From Escherichia phage IME08: a stretch of DNA of 64,000 nucleotides. A model generated the notes under the pieces. The model had not been told where the DNA came from and searched no databases. It saw only the letters and a program-made list of their open reading frames with translations. The stretch lies in sequence record NC_014260.1. One strand, 5' to 3'. Shown here piece after piece: positions 15 to 17,176 of the stretch. How positions within the stretch are numbered: position 1 is the stretch's first letter; the number at the start of each line of letters is the position of its first letter. A program made the translations under genes and the position numbers.

Positions 15-2225
15 TTAAGCCGCTTCCACGGCTTTCATGAATTTAACGATTTGAGCTACAGAAGCCTCGGTAATGGATGTTCCACGACGATACATGTAGT
101 CCGAAACTAAATGGTAATCAGATTCAAACTGTACAGTCATTTTATCATTGTTGCTTGAAGCATTATTGGTTAACGTATTAAACGTATTGTTACAAATTCT
201 CTTGGTGATATTCAATTTATCATCAGTGATATATCCATGGAAATTCATATAACGGAATATATCATAGAAATTGCTCAGACGAGTATATGTTTCAGACACC
301 GGCTTATCACTGAAATATTTAGTCATAAAACCAAGCTCAGGGAACTTAGCAATGATTTCAAGATAATACCTTGCACGGGTATTACTGCCAATATAATCAT
401 CAATATCTACAGCATCTAATGCTTCGGCATAAGCTTCTAACGTGGTTTCCATCAAGCATTCGCACTGGCCTAACTTTTTAATCTTTTTGGCAATCTGAGG
501 GCGAATGATATGGAATTCGGTAGCACCAATCAAATTAGCCATACGGCACATAGTAGTGGTGTTGATGTCAAAGATACCATAAGCTTCGTCCATTCCCATG
601 ATATCAGAACGGCTGCCAAACAGAACATAACCGGTAATTTCTTCTGCTTCAGCTGCGGTCAAATACATGGTCTCTGTTTGCCAGCGCCCGTCTTTAATGA
701 ACCAACGATAAGCACTTGGCGTTTTAGGACGAGGTTCTGACGAACGAACCGTAACCGGAATCCATGGCTTAACAATTTTATTCAGTTCAGAGACTTTATA
801 AAAATGAATTGTGTCACCTTTAAAAAGTTCTTTAACCTTTTCAAGCTGCTGCATTTGCAACATTGAATTTGGGTCGACAAAAATAAGGTCTGTCCCGTAT
901 TTAGGAATATTGTGCTCTTTAACAATTTTCTTGGCTGAAGCACTGTTGTCCATTGCCAGGGCCCAAAGTCCTCGAACTAATGGCACACGGCCCTTTTCAT
1001 CATCATAAACAACATGGATTTCTTTCTTATTAATGCCTAATAAATTACTAAGTCCTGCTACCGAAGAAGTATTACCACTTGACTTAATTCGTTTCAAACG
1101 CGGGTCTATACAAACTTCATAAACAACGCCTAAATTAAGAAGGTCGTTTTGAAGTGTATAACGCTGGTATAATTTCTCGTATGTTAATTTTTCAGTTGTG
1201 AACTGTTTAGTAATGCCTCTTTTAGAAAGATAATCACGGGCACTATAACCAAGGTTAGAGAGGTCACGATAAACATGGCGCGGATTATCAGATTCAACCC
1301 ATTCCTTCGTATCATTTTTAAAGACTACCGCATCTAGTGCTTCAATACGGGTTGCAATATTTTCCATTGTACGTTTATCAAGAGACAGCACTTCACGAGA
1401 TGGAGCAATATCTAACGAACCCATAGGGAACTTAATATAAACTACATCATGGCGAGTACGCATCCATGTGCCTTTATTATAAGCTGAATCTAATGGATAG
1501 ACGATGCCACCATAAACTGCATAAAGACCTGAACGTTCGAAATCGCCATAACCTGTATCGGTTACCGGGTAGTAGTCTTCGAATTCAGGGAAATAATCAA
1601 CTTCAGCACCGTCAACATCGCCAAGTCCAATGAAAGGCCGCATGATATAACGAACTTCAGTTTCGAACTTACGGAAGTCTTCTTCGTCCACAGGAACTGT
1701 GATTTCGATACCTGTTTTATCACCTGGCTGCATAGGTTCGACGAAAGTAGGTTTAATCTGCGGCCCATCACCGTCCATATACGCTACATATCCACGAACT
1801 TCACCGTTATGCCATGACGTGATATTAAACGTTTCGGTATAACTGAACGGAGATTTTGAACCAAGACCAAAGCCACCGATAAAATCGTTAGAAGCTGTTT
1901 TGGATGATGCGAAATAAGAGTTATACAACCCCGTTTCGTTTTCATCACCACGAATTTGGAAATCACTCATGCCTGGCCCGAAATCACGGCATACGAAACG
2001 TGGGTCTAGTTTACCGGGAACCTGTACTTTCCAACGTTCTTTATTACCATTCAGAATATGGGCGTCAATCATATTAGTAATTAGTTCACGTACTACAGCA
2101 CGTACTTTATTACTATAAAGGTCTGATGACAGAATTTTAAAGACCTTAGGCGATGCCTGGATAGTAAAGCCTGTGGACTTAGCGCCATTACCAATGATTT
2201 GTTCTTTTTCGGTTTCAATAATCAT
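15..2225 (-). CDS. rIIA: rIIA membrane-associated protein with N-terminal GHKL-type ATPase region
   Basis: 736 aa; N-terminal 150 aa near-identical in pattern to T4 RIIA as recalled (RAVVRELITNMIDAH, FVCRDFGPGMS, GGFGLGSKSPFSYT); first gene in T4 coordinate order. Confidence 0.95.
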   Translation of the reverse strand: MIIETEKEQIIGNGAKSTGFTIQASPKVFKILSSDLYSNKVRAVVRELITNMIDAHILNGNKERWKVQVPGKLDPRFVCRDFGPGMSDFQIRGDENETGLYNSYFASSKTASNDFIGGFGLGSKSPFSYTETFNITSWHNGEVRGYVAYMDGDGPQIKPTFVEPMQPGDKTGIEITVPVDEEDFRKFETEVRYIMRPFIGLGDVDGAEVDYFPEFEDYYPVTDTGYGDFERSGLYAVYGGIVYPLDSAYNKGTWMRTRHDVVYIKFPMGSLDIAPSREVLSLDKRTMENIATRIEALDAVVFKNDTKEWVESDNPRHVYRDLSNLGYSARDYLSKRGITKQFTTEKLTYEKLYQRYTLQNDLLNLGVVYEVCIDPRLKRIKSSGNTSSVAGLSNLLGINKKEIHVVYDDEKGRVPLVRGLWALAMDNSASAKKIVKEHNIPKYGTDLIFVDPNSMLQMQQLEKVKELFKGDTIHFYKVSELNKIVKPWIPVTVRSSEPRPKTPSAYRWFIKDGRWQTETMYLTAAEAEEITGYVLFGSRSDIMGMDEAYGIFDINTTTMCRMANLIGATEFHIIRPQIAKKIKKLGQCECLMETTLEAYAEALDAVDIDDYIGSNTRARYYLEIIAKFPELGFMTKYFSDKPVSETYTRLSNFYDIFRYMNFHGYITDDKLNITKRICNNTFNTLTNNASSNNDKMTVQFESDYHLVSDYMYRRGTSITEASVAQIVKFMKAVEAA

Positions 2226-2232
2226 ATTTTTC

Positions 2233-2436
2233 TCAATTCAGGTTACGTTTAAAAATATCTGCCACTTCAAGGAGCTCGTCCTTAGTAGCGATGTCGTTGA
2301 GTATTTTATATCTGATTTCTTTAAAGCGTTCTTTAAAATCCTCAGCTGCATTGATATCAAAAAATCGCTGGATTAGCCGGAATTCTTTATGGACGGCTTT
2401 ATCGAACAAATCAATATTCACTTTAAAGTTTGTCAT
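2233..2436 (-). CDS. small protein immediately upstream of rIIA (rIIA.1 position)
   Basis: 67 aa ORF abutting the rIIA start, same strand; assigned by position only. Confidence 0.5.
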   Translation of the reverse strand: MTNFKVNIDLFDKAVHKEFRLIQRFFDINAAEDFKERFKEIRYKILNDIATKDELLEVADIFKRNLN

Positions 2437-2773
2437 TTTTAACTATCTCATGTTGAACATATTCTCTGGTAGAACCCAGTTCAGCCAGAATTCTTCTCAT
2501 AGAACCCATTGTACTTTTGTGCTCTCTGTGGCGATACATTATCTCTAAAACCTTTTCCTGGACAACAGGAGAGAGCGCCTGGTTATCTTTAATCTTTAAG
2601 GCAATAGATTTTACAGCCTTAAGGTATTCAAGTCCCTTACCGCTTGTAGTCACTACTCCTTCATCTTTACAGTTACGAATAGCCGTTTCCATAAAGGATA
2701 AAGCCAGGTTGTCAGTGTTCACTATACTGTTATCTTGCATAATCATATTCTCACCTCTAGATAATCCTATCAC
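2423..2773 (-). CDS. hypothetical protein
   Basis: 116 aa ORF between gene 39 and rIIA.1; no motif recognised; start may be an internal Met. Confidence 0.45.
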   Translation of the reverse strand: MIGLSRGENMIMQDNSIVNTDNLALSFMETAIRNCKDEGVVTTSGKGLEYLKAVKSIALKIKDNQALSPVVQEKVLEIMYRHREHKSTMGSMRRILAELGSTREYVQHEIVKNDKL

Positions 2774-2795
2774 GGTTTTGTTATGTTGTAAACCC

Positions 2796-2816
2796 CGAAA
2801 AGGGCCTTGCGGCCCT
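2796..2816 (-). terminator. stem-loop GGGCC-ttgc-GGCCC followed by U-run on minus-strand transcript
   Basis: perfect 5-bp GC stem, 4-nt loop, then TTTTC on the minus strand; downstream of gene 39. Confidence 0.5.
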
Positions 2817-3015
2817 TAATTATTCAATTTTGTAGACTTGTCCTCGAACTTGATAAAATTCGCCTTCCCAGGTTTCTACCATAATGGTCACGTACTCTGC
2901 GAACAAAGGTCTCTTCTCAGCCCAGAGATATCCAAATTCACCGGTGGCTAGCGTTATCCAGTACTTTCTCATAAAGTCTCCTAATTGTATGGCACTCATG
3001 TACCATACATATTTA

Positions 3016-4833
3016 TTACGACATCCAGGCCTTACGGAGTTGAGGGTCGTTTCCGAGGAGCATTTCGAACTGTTCTTTCCAATCTTCAGGCAATTGAACC
3101 ACATCAAATTTAGGGTCTTGAATCATTCGACGGTATTCAGCCTTCTCAAGAGAACCTAGTCCTTTGATATAACGAATGGAGTGTTTTGGTAGAGAGTCCT
3201 TAGCTTTGGTATAACTAGGAACATCATAGAACCATTCCTGTTCTTTACCCACCTGAGCAATAATTACTGGAGTTTTACAGAATCGTACTCGGCCTTGTTC
3301 GAACAATTCAGGCCATTGACTAAAGAAGGCTAGCAATGATGGATAAATCGAACCAGTACCATCCACATCGGCATCAGTCATGATAGCGATATTACGATAG
3401 TTAGTTTTCTCTGCAGGTTCGCCAATAACCAGTCCAGTGATTGCACAGATATCAAATAGTTCCTTGTTCTTCATGATATCTGTTGCTGTCATTCCCCAGG
3501 TATTCATAACCTTACCACGTAATGGATAACCACCTTGAAGGTCTTTATTACGAACTTCAATGAAAGGACCCATAGCGGAATCGCCTTCGGTTAAGAACAA
3601 AGTCGTATCAGCATCTTTGCCGTATAAGTTGGCTTTAATATGCTTATGGACCTTGGCTTTAGAAGCTTTCTTAGCGGCTTTAGTTTCAGCTGCCTTTTCA
3701 GCTGCTAATTTACGTGCTAAAGCAGCTTCAACGATAGGCATAATCAACCCTTCGTCTTTAAGAATATACTGTGAGATTTTCTTTGCATCAATTTGAATAT
3801 GATTACGAATTTCACCGAATGGTGACGTCAAACGTTCTTTAGTCTGGGAATCAAAACGCATATTACTCATATCGCGAATGAACATCAGCATAGTTAAGCA
3901 TTCTTTAACTCGTGCCTTACTTACTTCGATGCCTTTATATTTCTTCTTGATGCCTGGCAAGAGATGTTCGCAGATATCATCAAACACACATTCAACATGA
4001 TGACCACCATTCTTAGTATGAATATTGTTCACATAAGTTAGGTGACGGAATCCATCCGGAGATGTAGTAAATGCCATTGAGACATTATCGGTTTCTTGAA
4101 TTACTACATCTTTACCAAATTGATTAGCATACTTTTTAAAGTTACCATCTACTTTTTTACCATTAAAAGTAAATTGGATACTAGGATAAATTACAGCTAG
4201 AGTTTTAAGACGATCTAGAGTAATATCCAGATAAATTTGTGATAGAGAGTTCTCTTCAAAATGATTAAAGTCTGGAGTGAATATAACCGAAGTACCCTTA
4301 CCTTTAGATTTCTTAGTAGACCAACCTTTGTTTTCCATTCCATTGGAACAGTTAACTGTAATTTCATTCTCGCCATCAGAGGTGATGCCTGTGAACAAAA
4401 CAGAGAAGATATTAGTTAAACTACTACCGACACCATTCATGCCGCCTGTCTTACGCTCTGCGTCATCTCCAAAGTTACCGCCAGCCTTTGGAATAGTCCA
4501 TGCAGCTACAGGACCTGGAATCTGTTCACCATTTTGGTCGGTGACCATTGCTTGTGGAATACCACGACCATTATCAGAAACCGAAACCTGGTTATTCTTA
4601 ATTTGAACATCAATTTTATTTGCGAATTTAAAATTGGTACGAATAGCTTCATCGACAGAGTTATCAATGATTTCGTCAATTAATTTAACCAGTCCAGGAA
4701 CATAGTTCACCTGAGTAAAATTACCAAACAGGAATCGACCGTGGGCTTCATTAGCACTGGAGCCAATATACATCCCACTACGTTTTTTGATATGTTCAAT
4801 GTCGGACAGTACTTTAATTTCATTCTTAATCAT
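3016..4833 (-). CDS. 39: DNA topoisomerase II large subunit, continuous ATPase + Toprim ORF (T4 39 and 60 equivalents fused)
   Basis: 605 aa; GyrB-like ATPase motifs (SDNGRGIP, GGMNGVGSS) and C-terminal Toprim motif (IMTDADVDG) in one reading frame. Confidence 0.9.
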   Translation of the reverse strand: MIKNEIKVLSDIEHIKKRSGMYIGSSANEAHGRFLFGNFTQVNYVPGLVKLIDEIIDNSVDEAIRTNFKFANKIDVQIKNNQVSVSDNGRGIPQAMVTDQNGEQIPGPVAAWTIPKAGGNFGDDAERKTGGMNGVGSSLTNIFSVLFTGITSDGENEITVNCSNGMENKGWSTKKSKGKGTSVIFTPDFNHFEENSLSQIYLDITLDRLKTLAVIYPSIQFTFNGKKVDGNFKKYANQFGKDVVIQETDNVSMAFTTSPDGFRHLTYVNNIHTKNGGHHVECVFDDICEHLLPGIKKKYKGIEVSKARVKECLTMLMFIRDMSNMRFDSQTKERLTSPFGEIRNHIQIDAKKISQYILKDEGLIMPIVEAALARKLAAEKAAETKAAKKASKAKVHKHIKANLYGKDADTTLFLTEGDSAMGPFIEVRNKDLQGGYPLRGKVMNTWGMTATDIMKNKELFDICAITGLVIGEPAEKTNYRNIAIMTDADVDGTGSIYPSLLAFFSQWPELFEQGRVRFCKTPVIIAQVGKEQEWFYDVPSYTKAKDSLPKHSIRYIKGLGSLEKAEYRRMIQDPKFDVVQLPEDWKEQFEMLLGNDPQLRKAWMS

Positions 4834-4882
4834 GTTATTTCCTCATGTAGTAGGAGAATATTATCCCATTTCACTTAAAGCA

Positions 4883-4900
4883 TAAAAGGGCCGAAGCCCT
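4883..4900 (-). terminator. GGGC-UUCG-GCCC tetraloop hairpin plus U-run
   Basis: on minus strand reads GGGCttcgGCCCtttt; overlaps stop of the lipoprotein ORF. Confidence 0.5.
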
Positions 4901-5160
4901 TAATCAAATCGAATGGTCGACTTTTTAAAGAACAACCCAGAACAAACGGTTCCTTCAACCCTTTTACCTGTCGGACCCACAGCAATAAAGCCTGTACGTT
5001 GGAAATCATCTTCAGAGCAGCCAAATAGGTTGTATCCCGTGATTTGGATTTGTTCGTAGCCATTTGCATCCAATACACGGGTAGCATTATCAGCATCAGT
5101 ACAACCAACCAACGAAACGGCTAATACAAGAGCTGCAATAGAACGATTAATATATTTCAT
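4900..5160 (-). CDS. putative lipoprotein
   Basis: 86 aa; N-terminal signal peptide with lipobox LVGC. Confidence 0.6.
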   Translation of the reverse strand: MKYINRSIAALVLAVSLVGCTDADNATRVLDANGYEQIQITGYNLFGCSEDDFQRTGFIAVGPTGKRVEGTVCSGLFFKKSTIRFD

Positions 5161-5166
5161 AATTTC

Positions 5167-5343
5167 TCACTTAGTCAGCAGGTCGTAAAAACCGCCATTA
5201 ACATGTTTAGGAGCCGAGACTAACCGAACAGCCAGCCGATGGCAATCAGGACAAACATCATTATCTCTTTCAGAGATTTTCTTGATTTTTTCGTATTCTT
5301 TTGCACAGTCTTCAGATTGGCATTTGTAATCATAAAGTGGCAT
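5167..5343 (-). CDS. small zinc-ribbon protein (FmdB-like CxxC...CPxC)
   Basis: 58 aa ORF below the track cutoff, hand-translated: MPLYDYKCQSEDCAKEYE...CPDCHRL; AAGGA Shine-Dalgarno 5 nt upstream of ATG. Confidence 0.6.
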   Translation of the reverse strand: MPLYDYKCQSEDCAKEYEKIKKISERDNDVCPDCHRLAVRLVSAPKHVNGGFYDLLTK

Positions 5344-5344
5344 A

Positions 5345-5782
5345 TTATTCCTTAAAGTGCGCTTTCAGCATCTGGTAAACAGTCCAGGCTTCAGAATTAT
5401 TAGAGATAGTGATTTTAGTCAAAGGGAAATCACTCGGTTCAGATGGAGCTGCATCTTCAGATTGGTCTTCGTCTTCAGAGAAACCATCTTCAGCCCATTC
5501 GTCTTCACTGTCAACTACAACCATTTCTGTAAAGAATTTACGCTCGCTTGGATATAAAACCATATCAGTGTTATCACCATAGGCCAAGTCCACGTTCATT
5601 ACATAACCGGCCGCTAATCTAGCAGGGCAAAAACCTTCAGAATTGACAATAATATCTGCTATAGAAGAATTATCAAGACTCCTAATATTACTGGAATTCA
5701 GGTTACGGAATTCGGCTTCAGCCGCATCATCTTTAAAATAATACCATTTACCTTTTTCAAATTCAAGTTCTTGATTAAGCAT
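5345..5782 (-). CDS. hypothetical acidic protein
   Basis: start moved to internal ATG at 5782 with GGAAGGAGA SD, abutting the stop of the upstream gene (ATGCTTAA); strongly acidic stretch DSEDEWAEDGFSEDEDQSEDAAPSEPSD. Confidence 0.6.
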   Translation of the reverse strand: MLNQELEFEKGKWYYFKDDAAEAEFRNLNSSNIRSLDNSSIADIIVNSEGFCPARLAAGYVMNVDLAYGDNTDMVLYPSERKFFTEMVVVDSEDEWAEDGFSEDEDQSEDAAPSEPSDFPLTKITISNNSEAWTVYQMLKAHFKE

Positions 5783-14430: not shown

Positions 14431-14664
14431 TTAAACTACTGGGGTCGGCGTGAACATTGCTGCGTTCTTAGTTCGCCAATCGGCTGCATCAGTCACTACA
14501 GTAGTATAGGCTGCAACGGCCGAAGGGAAAGTCTGATAATGAGAGTCTGCAATACGGTGCTCGTTTGAATAAATCTCAAACGGGACCGAAACCTCAGTAC
14601 CTTTAACTTCTTTACCTTCACCAGCTGGATGTGTAAAGGTTTTGATATTAACGAAACCACCCAT
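14431..14664 (-). CDS. soc: small outer capsid protein
   Basis: 77 aa; VNIKTF...HYQTFPS...AAY match recalled T4 Soc. Confidence 0.9.
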   Translation of the reverse strand: MGGFVNIKTFTHPAGEGKEVKGTEVSVPFEIYSNEHRIADSHYQTFPSAVAAYTTVVTDAADWRTKNAAMFTPTPVV

Positions 14665-14695
14665 AATTAACTCCTTTGTTGTTTAATTACAGGTG

Positions 14696-14703
14696 TATTT
14701 ATA
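14696..14703 (-). promoter_or_regulatory. late promoter TATAAATA upstream of soc
   Basis: minus strand TATAAATAcacctgtaattaaacaacaaaggagttaattATG. Confidence 0.7.
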
Positions 14704-14705
14704 AC

Positions 14706-15227
14706 TTAATAACCTCGGTCTTGACGAGCAAAGTTCTCGGCATTTTTCAGATAATACAACTTAAAGATTTCTTCAGCAGTCAGTCCAAGGCCTTGGAACA
14801 TATTCAGAACGAAATGGAGAATATCAATCATTTCAAATTTAATTTCGAGCTGGTCTTCAGGAGAGAGTTCGTCAATACGACGGTTACGGAATTCACCATG
14901 TTGAGCTTTCCAAGGCTTCCACACACTAGATGCGGCTTTCTCGCCATTGCTCATGCCACCAAGAGAAGTCAACAGTTCACGGAATTCGTCATCAATATAA
15001 TCTTTCTGGTTGCGAAGCCAATCGACAACTTGACCTGCAGTAGCCAGTTCATCGGGGTTAGAGTTAAATTCAGATTTTTCAGTAGCCAAACGGACCTGTA
15101 ATGATTTCTGCATATCAAGCATAACCTGCAGAGGGTCTTTATCTTCATGAATCAGAGCATTAAAATAAGCTTCCTCAGCTTTATCAACACCAGAAATCAA
15201 ACCACTACATTCGTTAAAAAATGCCAT
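14706..15227 (-). CDS. 56: dCTP pyrophosphatase (MazG-like dCTPase)
   Basis: 173 aa; position after soc; all-alpha MazG-like sequence with the EExxE signature pattern; size matches T4 gp56. Confidence 0.85.
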   Translation of the reverse strand: MAFFNECSGLISGVDKAEEAYFNALIHEDKDPLQVMLDMQKSLQVRLATEKSEFNSNPDELATAGQVVDWLRNQKDYIDDEFRELLTSLGGMSNGEKAASSVWKPWKAQHGEFRNRRIDELSPEDQLEIKFEMIDILHFVLNMFQGLGLTAEEIFKLYYLKNAENFARQDRGY

Positions 15228-15231
15228 TATA

Positions 15232-15888
15232 TTATTTCCTATTAAAGTTTTCTATCATTCGTCGATAACAAATATCAGGATATCCATTATCAACAGCTAT
15301 TTTATTAAATTTGGTGCGTTTAGGTTTATTATTGTAAACCCATAATTCATAAAGCATATCGTAACTATTCCATATTTCTCCGCGCCTAGGATTTGGCAAA
15401 CCATATCGAGGGGAATCTTTACCACTAAATCTTCCTTTTCTAGCTTTACTCATATTGGCCTTAGCTTCATCAGATATAATTTTATCTTTATGAGCCAGGC
15501 GCATTTTGGCTTTAGTTTCTTCAGGAGTTTTCATCCCTCTAATCCAGGAAGGTTTACCAAACATCGGGTTATTTTTTCCTGAAAATGCTTTAGCGTTATT
15601 TTCTCTTAACGTGGCTATAGTTCTACTAGTTAATTTAACTCCTTTATTATATCTCATTAAATTAACAGCATAATGTAGACCTTTTACTTCGGGATATATT
15701 TTTGTTAAAAGCCTATGAGCTACAAAGTGTTCTCTTGGCAATAAAGCAACTAAATTGTTTTTATCATCAGAACCATTCATACATCTAGGTATAACATGGT
15801 GTTCTTCCGTATAATATGATAAAGACCGCTTAGAACCTCTTAATTTTCCTTTAGATATTAATTCCTGGTATATTTTTTCGTAATTCAT
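15232..15888 (-). CDS. HNH homing endonuclease with NUMOD-like repeats
   Basis: 218 aa; HNH motif EEHHVIPRCMNGSDDKNNLVALLPREHFVAHR; repeated NPMFGK/KDSPRYG modules; AT-rich ORF inserted between gene 56 and gene 61. Confidence 0.8.
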   Translation of the reverse strand: MNYEKIYQELISKGKLRGSKRSLSYYTEEHHVIPRCMNGSDDKNNLVALLPREHFVAHRLLTKIYPEVKGLHYAVNLMRYNKGVKLTSRTIATLRENNAKAFSGKNNPMFGKPSWIRGMKTPEETKAKMRLAHKDKIISDEAKANMSKARKGRFSGKDSPRYGLPNPRRGEIWNSYDMLYELWVYNNKPKRTKFNKIAVDNGYPDICYRRMIENFNRK

Positions 15889-15921
15889 GGGATAATTGTA
15901 TCATTAATTTGTAAAGCAAGT

Positions 15922-15929
15922 TATAAATA
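15922..15929 (+). promoter_or_regulatory. late-promoter-like TATAAATA on the plus strand
   Basis: TATAAATA 10 nt upstream of AGGAGG SD and the ATG at 15951. Confidence 0.45.
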
Positions 15930-15950
15930 TTAATTTAACAGGAGGATAAT

Positions 15951-16151
15951 ATGGGCAGTATTTTTTACCAAATCTGGAAATTGGCCGAAAAGAAAGACAA
16001 GAAAATGATGTTAGGTTTTCTTGCGCTAGACGTATTCCTTTGGAATCTTTTAGTAGTCCCTGTAGCCGCTAGCCAAGGGATAATTTTACCAGCGGTTACA
16101 ATGGAACACGTATTAAGCATAATTGGATTCTTTAGCGGAATTCCTGCCTAA
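15951..16151 (+). CDS. small hydrophobic protein, only plus-strand gene candidate
   Basis: 66 aa; consensus AGGAGG SD with 5-nt spacing; two hydrophobic segments; convergent with primase gene. Confidence 0.45.
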   Translation: MGSIFYQIWKLAEKKDKKMMLGFLALDVFLWNLLVVPVAASQGIILPAVTMEHVLSIIGFFSGIPA

Positions 16152-17176
16152 ATTTTAGAATATTTCGAAAGTCTCATTTTAGCCATTAGACCTTGGGCTA
16201 TATTAGCTTTCATATATGCCAGTACATCATTTATATCAGCTTTATCTTTCATAATCATATCATTTATATCTTTAGAAGGCCATGGAGCCTTGTCCCAGAA
16301 TAGAACCCTTTCGCCAGCATCAACTAATCGTTGCATACGCTTAATTGTGTCAGGATGGCGGGGTTCATTGTCCATTACCCAAGCTCGAGTTTCTTTACAC
16401 GGAACCATAGCCAAGTCCAATGACCCACCAGTAATTGCTATTGCATTAGGTACGAATAATGAATCAATAGGACCTTCCATTACCCACACCAACTGACGTT
16501 CGTCAACTGTATCCATTCCATATATTTTTGTAGCTTGGTCATGAGCTTTTATTGTAATATATTTTTGTGGAGCATCTTTACGTAAGGCTCGACCCTGAAA
16601 ACTTTCAATTTGTTTATTCTTATTGAAAATTGGAATAACCAAACGCGGTTCAGGCATTTCTTTAGAATAGGTCCCTGGATTCACAGAGTTAACTAATGCG
16701 GGCCATTCTTTAGTAAACCACAGCCGATTCCATTTGTTTTCAGGAATGCAACGTAGTGTCACATATTTGATAATAGGATGGTCCTTTGGCATTCTATCTA
16801 ATCGTTCACAGAAATTAAGCTTTTCGATAACAGGCATCTTAGCTTTAATTTTTTCAGATATCTCCACCTTAGGTGCAGCTTGTCTCCCGAACGATTGCTC
16901 TTTATGTTTCTCAAGAATATATTCACGATATAAATCAGGCTCATATTCGTATAGATACTTCTTAATTCCTGCTGAATAATCACAGTTAAAACAGTGCAGC
17001 ATTACAGAGCCGTCATTGGCCGGATAGGCCCAAAAACGCGCTTTGTTCTCATCTTTTAGGGAGTCGCCACATACACGACAACGGCAATTTAATTTAAAAT
17101 CACTACCAGTTACTTGTCTGAATTTAGGTTGGTAATTCAAGGCACGTACAGCAAATTCTCTATCGACATATGACAT
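16148..17176 (-). CDS. 61: DNA primase
   Basis: 342 aa; N-terminal zinc ribbon CRCRVC...CFNC; same length as T4 gp61. Confidence 0.9.
   Translation of the reverse strand: MSYVDREFAVRALNYQPKFRQVTGSDFKLNCRCRVCGDSLKDENKARFWAYPANDGSVMLHCFNCDYSAGIKKYLYEYEPDLYREYILEKHKEQSFGRQAAPKVEISEKIKAKMPVIEKLNFCERLDRMPKDHPIIKYVTLRCIPENKWNRLWFTKEWPALVNSVNPGTYSKEMPEPRLVIPIFNKNKQIESFQGRALRKDAPQKYITIKAHDQATKIYGMDTVDERQLVWVMEGPIDSLFVPNAIAITGGSLDLAMVPCKETRAWVMDNEPRHPDTIKRMQRLVDAGERVLFWDKAPWPSKDINDMIMKDKADINDVLAYMKANIAQGLMAKMRLSKYSKI

Follow-up and report, generated by a model that had tools for sequence, protein, structure and literature searches.

The topoisomerase gene and its product

The minus strand of the window, which is the whole 64-kb stretch of DNA that was analysed, carries at 3016..4833 a single open reading frame (ORF) of 605 codons plus a stop, which starts with ATG and shows no internal stop in either the ORF list or the translation. 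This frame is a complete coding sequence for the large subunit of DNA topoisomerase II, the orthologue of gene 39 and the equivalent of T4 gp39 and gp60 together, as indicated by the ORF itself, by a full-length match to PHROG 543 ('DNA topoisomerase II large subunit', E=3.7e-281) and by the solved structure 8ylu_C. One continuous 605-aa frame with exactly this position had been predicted from the sequence and was recovered here; the strand was absent from that prediction and is supplied by the present analysis. The plus-strand reading of the interval was rejected because its translation contains many stops throughout, whereas the minus-strand translation is clean. Under a chance model set to the composition of the window (39.3% GC, with a stop probability of 0.061 per codon), 605 consecutive stop-free codons have a probability of ~3e-17. 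Of the other two sense frames of the interval, one contains 31 stops and the other 89.

The ATPase and Toprim regions lie within this one frame, as originally predicted, and are delimited by the Pfam domains HATPase_c, DNA_gyraseB, Toprim and TOPRIM_C. The GHKL ATPase domain occupies aa 47-189 (4267..4695, minus strand; HATPase_c E=2.1e-10, above the gathering score) and includes the N-box EIIDNSVDE at residue 54, the G1 motif DNGRGIP at 87 and the G2 motif GGMNGVG at 130. It is followed by the transducer, corresponding to the second domain of GyrB, at aa 250-385 (3679..4086, minus strand; DNA_gyraseB E=1.8e-14, again above the gathering score), with its QTK loop at residue 330, and by an uninterrupted Toprim domain at aa 411-519 (3277..3603, minus strand) that contains EGDSA at 416, PLRGK at 437 and DADVDG (the DxDxD motif) at 487. 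The Toprim-associated C-terminal region at aa 521-583 (3085..3273, minus strand) shares 77% of its residues with the corresponding part of T4 gp60. These last two domains score below their Pfam gathering cut-offs (18.2 bits against 23.1 for Toprim, and 22.8 bits against 29 for TOPRIM_C), which is usual for phage gp39, and both were accepted on the strength of the catalytic motifs and of the matches in PDB and PHROG. Of the features that characterize a type IIA B-type subunit, the GHKL motifs, the QTK lysine of the transducer and the Toprim EGDSA and DxDxD motifs are all present, and the interval encodes a complete subunit of this type with its GHKL ATPase, transducer, Toprim and C-terminal tail.

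The best match among solved structures is T6 gp39 (PDB 8ylu_C, 1078 bits), against residues 1-604 of which residues 1-605 align in one stretch with a single 1-residue indel. The alignment runs unbroken through the Toprim domain, and no hidden frameshift or stop is found. The next structural matches are an artificial fusion of T4 gp39 and gp60 (8yo3_C), and then eukaryotic Topo II and ParE/GyrB. T6 and T2 gp39 (PDB 8ylu and related structures) likewise hold GHKL, transducer, Toprim and tail in one polypeptide of 605 aa (PMC11461880). The window protein is colinear end to end with the 605-aa T6 protein at ~78% protein identity and ~73% DNA identity, with one residue inserted at position 301; T6 is a Tequatrovirus, while the window phage is a JS98-like Dhakavirus. 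Within Dhakavirus, the region 2200-5400 is identical at the DNA level to AnYang by 97.7%, to C6 by 97.4% and to JS98 by 90.9%; the annotations of all three list the gene as topoisomerase II large subunit. The gp39 proteins of AnYang (YP_010100399.1), C6 and JS98 (ABX11029.1) are orthologues encoded at the same genome position, are all 605 aa long and differ from the window protein by a few amino-acid substitutions only.

By homology to the T6 enzyme, two of the 605-aa subunits would assemble with two gp52 A-type subunits into an A2B2 type IIA enzyme. The GHKL domains would bind and hydrolyse ATP, close the N-gate and clamp the T-segment, as in T6 (PMC11461880), and the acidic Toprim residues E416 and D487/D489/D491 probably hold the Mg2+ for cleavage of the G-segment by the gp52 tyrosine. 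The enzymes of T6 and T4 have a demonstrated ATP-dependent strand-passage activity (PMC11461880). A tblastn search with T4 gp52 gave no match within the 64-kb window; the T4 gene order puts gp52 beyond rIIB, outside the window. Domain order and motifs are also shared with bacterial GyrB/ParE and with the N-terminal half of eukaryotic Topo II (E=1e-38 to 4e-57). E. coli GyrB, however, is much longer than the phage protein and carries an extra insertion domain in its Toprim. The phage enzyme relaxes rather than supercoils DNA and is without the GyrA-box/CTD partner features (PMC11461880).

Comparison with genes 39 and 60 of T4

In T4, gene 39 (3778..5328) and gene 60 (2458..2802 joined to 2853..2990) are both on the minus strand, and the two segments of gene 60 are separated by the 50-nt bypass at 2803..2852. 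Between the two genes lies a mobA pseudogene on the same strand, with annotated mobA at 3654..3767 and 60.1 at 2971..3351. The Toprim domain of T4 is divided between the two products: its first half, with EGDSA and PLRGK, is in gp39 together with the ATPase and the transducer, and its second half, with DxDxD, is in gp60 together with the tail. The window protein is colinear with both products: its residues 1-474 align with T4 gp39 1-473 at 76.6% identity with one 1-aa indel, and its residues 478-605 align with gp60 32-160 at 77.3% identity. Between aa 474, where the gp39 alignment stops, and aa 478, where the gp60 alignment begins, lies a linker of three residues, E475-K476-T477 (3403..3411, minus strand), at the position of the T4 39/60 split. 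The length of this linker is shared with T6, which has ENL in place of EKT. Since the T4 break falls between EGDSA/PLRGK and DxDxD, and the Pfam Toprim match (411-519) spans the junction at 474/478, the split is located inside the Toprim domain. The original prediction was therefore right about the 39/60 split and the bypass in T4, but not in its division into an ATPase encoded by gene 39 and a Toprim encoded by gene 60, because both the motifs and the published description (PMC11461880) place the break within Toprim.

Over the homologous parts, T4 gp39 plus gp60 and the window protein are the same enzyme with the same catalytic residues, at 77% identity. T4 differs by an insert of ~1.1 kb within Toprim, which is absent from the window gene, and the T4-only extras comprise a 43-aa C-terminal extension (CTE) of gp39, the mobA pseudogene, a unique 31-aa N-terminus of gp60 and the 50-nt gap after Gly46. 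The unique N-terminus of gp60 carries the nascent-peptide signal KKYKLQNNVRRSIKSSS, to which the window protein has no counterpart. Codon comparison places the take-off Gly46 and the post-landing Leu47 of T4 gene 60 at G492-T493 of the window protein (GGT ACT; 3355..3360, minus strand). T4 reads GAT GGA TAG, then the 50-nt gap, then TTA GGT TCT at this position, whereas the window gene reads GAT GGT ACT GGT TCG (D-G-T-G-S) with no gap.

Searches for remnants of the cassette or of the bypass were uniformly negative in the gene. The C-terminal extension of T4 gp39, the N-terminal extension (NTE) of gp60 and gp60.1 gave no significant tblastn match in or near the gene, and the T4 cassette (2803-3777) compared with the whole window by blastn returned, apart from chance matches, no more than the coding homology expected at 3359..3402. 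The GGA-stop take-off site is absent from every frame of the gene, as is the hairpin core CCTTCGGG from its sequence. In RNA folding, the 96 nt at the bypass-equivalent site did not fold better than shuffles (z -0.42), whereas the T4 bypass region formed its take-off hairpin in the same test (z -2.48). No endonuclease-encoding insert was found within the topoisomerase gene. The prediction that neither a split nor a mobile insertion is present agrees with these negative cassette, take-off site and hairpin searches, and motif search, tblastn and RNA folding together revealed no remnant of the bypass hairpin or of a mobA-like insertion in the gene. The gene has no insert of ~1.1 kb and no coding gap with a take-off GGA, a stop and a stem-loop; instead, a single ORF runs through the MobA insertion zone (aa ~466-491) and contains no CTE- or NTE-derived residues.

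Prevalence and origin of the unsplit gene

Uninterrupted Topo2L genes have been named 'parental', in distinction from those that carry the MobA element, which is 1097-1106 nt long, is inserted at aa 466-473 and ends after D490/G491 (Manning & Atkins, bioRxiv 10.1101/2022.08.31.505936). The Topo II of T2 and T6 consists of two subunits, and T4 possesses the sole three-subunit type IIA enzyme (PMC11461880); the correspondence of T6 gp39 to T4 gp39 plus gp60 was already known in 1985 (Huang et al. 1985, as cited in PMC11461880). The prevalence of the unsplit arrangement was estimated with an 81-aa peptide across the junction and the bypass site, which is short, so that the T4 pieces, ~1 kb apart, stay unjoined in the search. 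The peptide was contiguous, that is, found in one place with at least 80% coverage, in 1669 of the 1741 matching phage records (96%), while in the split phages T4T, Salmonella S16, Acinetobacter fHyAci03 and Aeromonas Aes516 only 51-54% of it was covered. The T4 cassette DNA was present to at least 80% in 41 of 50,697 records, and diverged versions of the cassette occur in Salmonella, Proteus and Acinetobacter phages. The unsplit state is thus the known parental form, common to T2, T6 and ~96% of the sequenced phages with the gene, and the split gene of T4 with its 50-nt bypass is a rare exception.

We estimate a probability of about 97% that 3016..4833 on the minus strand is the gene 39, in intact form, of a T4-type phage of the JS98-like kind (Dhakavirus), and that this gene encodes the B-type Topo II subunit and is parental in the sense of never having been invaded by MobA. 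None of the results speaks against this reading. The apparent continuity could be produced by an assembly or sequencing error, or the frame could belong to a pseudogene that is open by chance; no observation spoke for this, and it is exceedingly improbable, given the ~3e-17 chance of 605 open codons, the full-length identity of 77-78% with the proteins of T4 and T6, broken by one 1-aa indel, the retention of every catalytic motif and the identical protein length in three independent genomes. A bacterial gyrB or parE acquired from the host, in place of the phage's own gene 39, deserves just as little credence, although the orthologue is named 'parE' or 'DNA gyrase subunit B' in some database records. 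The T6 and T4 phage enzymes match with 1078 and 1037 bits, respectively, against only 136-154 bits for bacterial ParE/GyrB, and the gene lies in the conserved T4-type order rIIA - rIIA.1 - 39 - 39.1 - 39.2 - goF, so that at the level of sequence comparison a bacterial origin is refuted.

Slightly more weight can be given to a secondary re-fusion, in which the gene was at one time split by a MobA element that has since been lost by excision, but this too is very unlikely. Such genes exist (bioRxiv 10.1101/2022.08.31.505936, section 7), the 'hit-and-run' genes of Aeromonas clade 7 being re-fused genes that retain CTE/NTE scars (bioRxiv 10.1101/2022.08.31.505936), and a clean excision without scars is possible in principle. 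A re-fused gene would be expected to appear as a full-length ORF in which insertions homologous to the CTE and the NTE mark the MobA site, yet only the three residues EKT, of the same length as in T6, are found there; the T4 CTE and NTE peptides match nothing in the gene, and JS98 and AnYang share the same structure. As the window gene carries no CTE/NTE scars, it is better described as parental than as re-fused. A parental gene that was never invaded by MobA would need neither reassembly of the subunit from pieces nor ribosomal bypassing for its expression.

The gene is real, ordinary and already known, in a phage that is nearly identical to published genomes, and it has little significance beyond correct annotation. 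It represents the textbook parental state against which the MobA insertion and the 50-nt bypass of T4 are defined, and offers a further uninterrupted gene for comparison or, possibly, a recipient in homing. Regarding the latter, the Dhakavirus gene could be a naive target of MobA homing that would be invaded on co-infection with a MobA-proficient T4-type phage, because its Toprim segment with the MobA nick site (~3358-3402, NYRNIAIMTDADVDG) is uninterrupted and lacks the protection of a bypass insert. We regard this suggestion as doubtful; DNA identity with the T6 target and with T4 homR is only ~72%, and susceptibility to MobA is therefore uncertain. If true, such targeting would extend the cassette to Dhakavirus, a genus in which no instance was seen here, and even then it would be of modest interest.

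For these full-length genes, labels taken over from T4, such as 'gp39 N-terminal region', are also shown to be wrong, and database naming is inconsistent. The full-length gp39 of JS98 (EF469154.1, 3025..4842) is labelled 'N-terminal region', as is that of EcWhh-1, and this label on an unsplit gene is an annotation error derived from T4. Other database names of the full-length orthologue are '60plus39' (in RB51), 'parE', 'DNA gyrase subunit B' and 'hypothetical protein'.

Genome setting and neighbouring elements

Coordinates compared with those of the relatives indicate that the window opens where the genome of a JS98-like Dhakavirus conventionally starts. In this genome, two small ORFs stand between rIIA.1 and gene 39, and a goF-like gene follows 39.2. 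The stretch between rIIA.1 and gene 39 (2437..3015, minus strand) measures ~580 bp, against only ~54 nt in T4 and T6, and is unannotated in JS98. One of the small ORFs lies at 2423..2773 (minus strand; PHROG 5382) and probably starts at an internal Met. For the other, the start used in AnYang gives an ORF of 2820..3107, ~90 nt of which lie within the 3' end of gene 39. We rejected this longer version; its PHROG match covers the last 50 aa only, so that an internal Met is the most likely start of the gene, which then comprises 2820..2972 (minus strand; PHROG 4369, 50 aa), with no overlap. An insertion inside gene 39 of phage 04086 (OR842557.1; a 98.2% identical Dhakavirus), suggested by a two-piece match, was also rejected: the gene has the coordinates and length of that of AnYang, and the ~190 bp by which this phage exceeds the window therefore lie in the 39.1/39.2 region, upstream of the gene; the interval concerned in phage 04086 is ~4135..4832. 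An Rfam scan of the whole 64-kb window, an early-gene region, at gathering thresholds returned no family of structured RNA, tRNAs by the Rfam models included.

Several candidate expression signals precede the gene on the minus strand. A putative Shine-Dalgarno sequence, GAGG (4841..4844), is located 7 nt before the ATG in the upstream sequence '...CATGAGGAAATAAC ATG'. Further upstream, a middle-promoter-like site with a MotA-type box (TATGCTTTA, 12 nt, TAATAT; 4858..4884) was recognized by consensus match and ends 24 nt before the ATG; its pattern has only four matches on both strands of the 64-kb window. A terminator-like GC-rich hairpin followed by a T-run (AAGGGCTTCGGCCCTT; 4886..4901), likewise a consensus match, lies between 39.1 and 39, in a region where the terminator scan counted no more hairpins than expected from shuffles. 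T4 has a similar arrangement of a hairpin plus a promoter upstream of gene 39, and, on the consensus match, a MotA-dependent middle promoter directly in front of the window gene probably drives its expression.

The genome does carry a mob-type endonuclease, elsewhere than in the topoisomerase gene. A free-standing HNH homing-endonuclease gene at 15232..15888 (minus strand; 218 aa, PHROG 655, E=2e-54) sits between a homologue of the dCTPase gene (gene 56) and the soc and primase genes, and its product is 50% identical to a T4 mobA fragment over 32 aa. The only mobA-like match in the window, obtained with the mobA peptide at 15748..15843, was considered as a remnant from the topoisomerase gene and rejected, as it belongs to this separate HNH gene. 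The presence of the HNH gene is variable among phages: the region 14500-16300 is covered to at least 80% in only 8 phage records, and the gene is missing from the close relatives C6, WG01 and KIT01, in which the region is covered to 62% in two pieces. In VR5, the orthologue of the HNH gene is labelled mobE.
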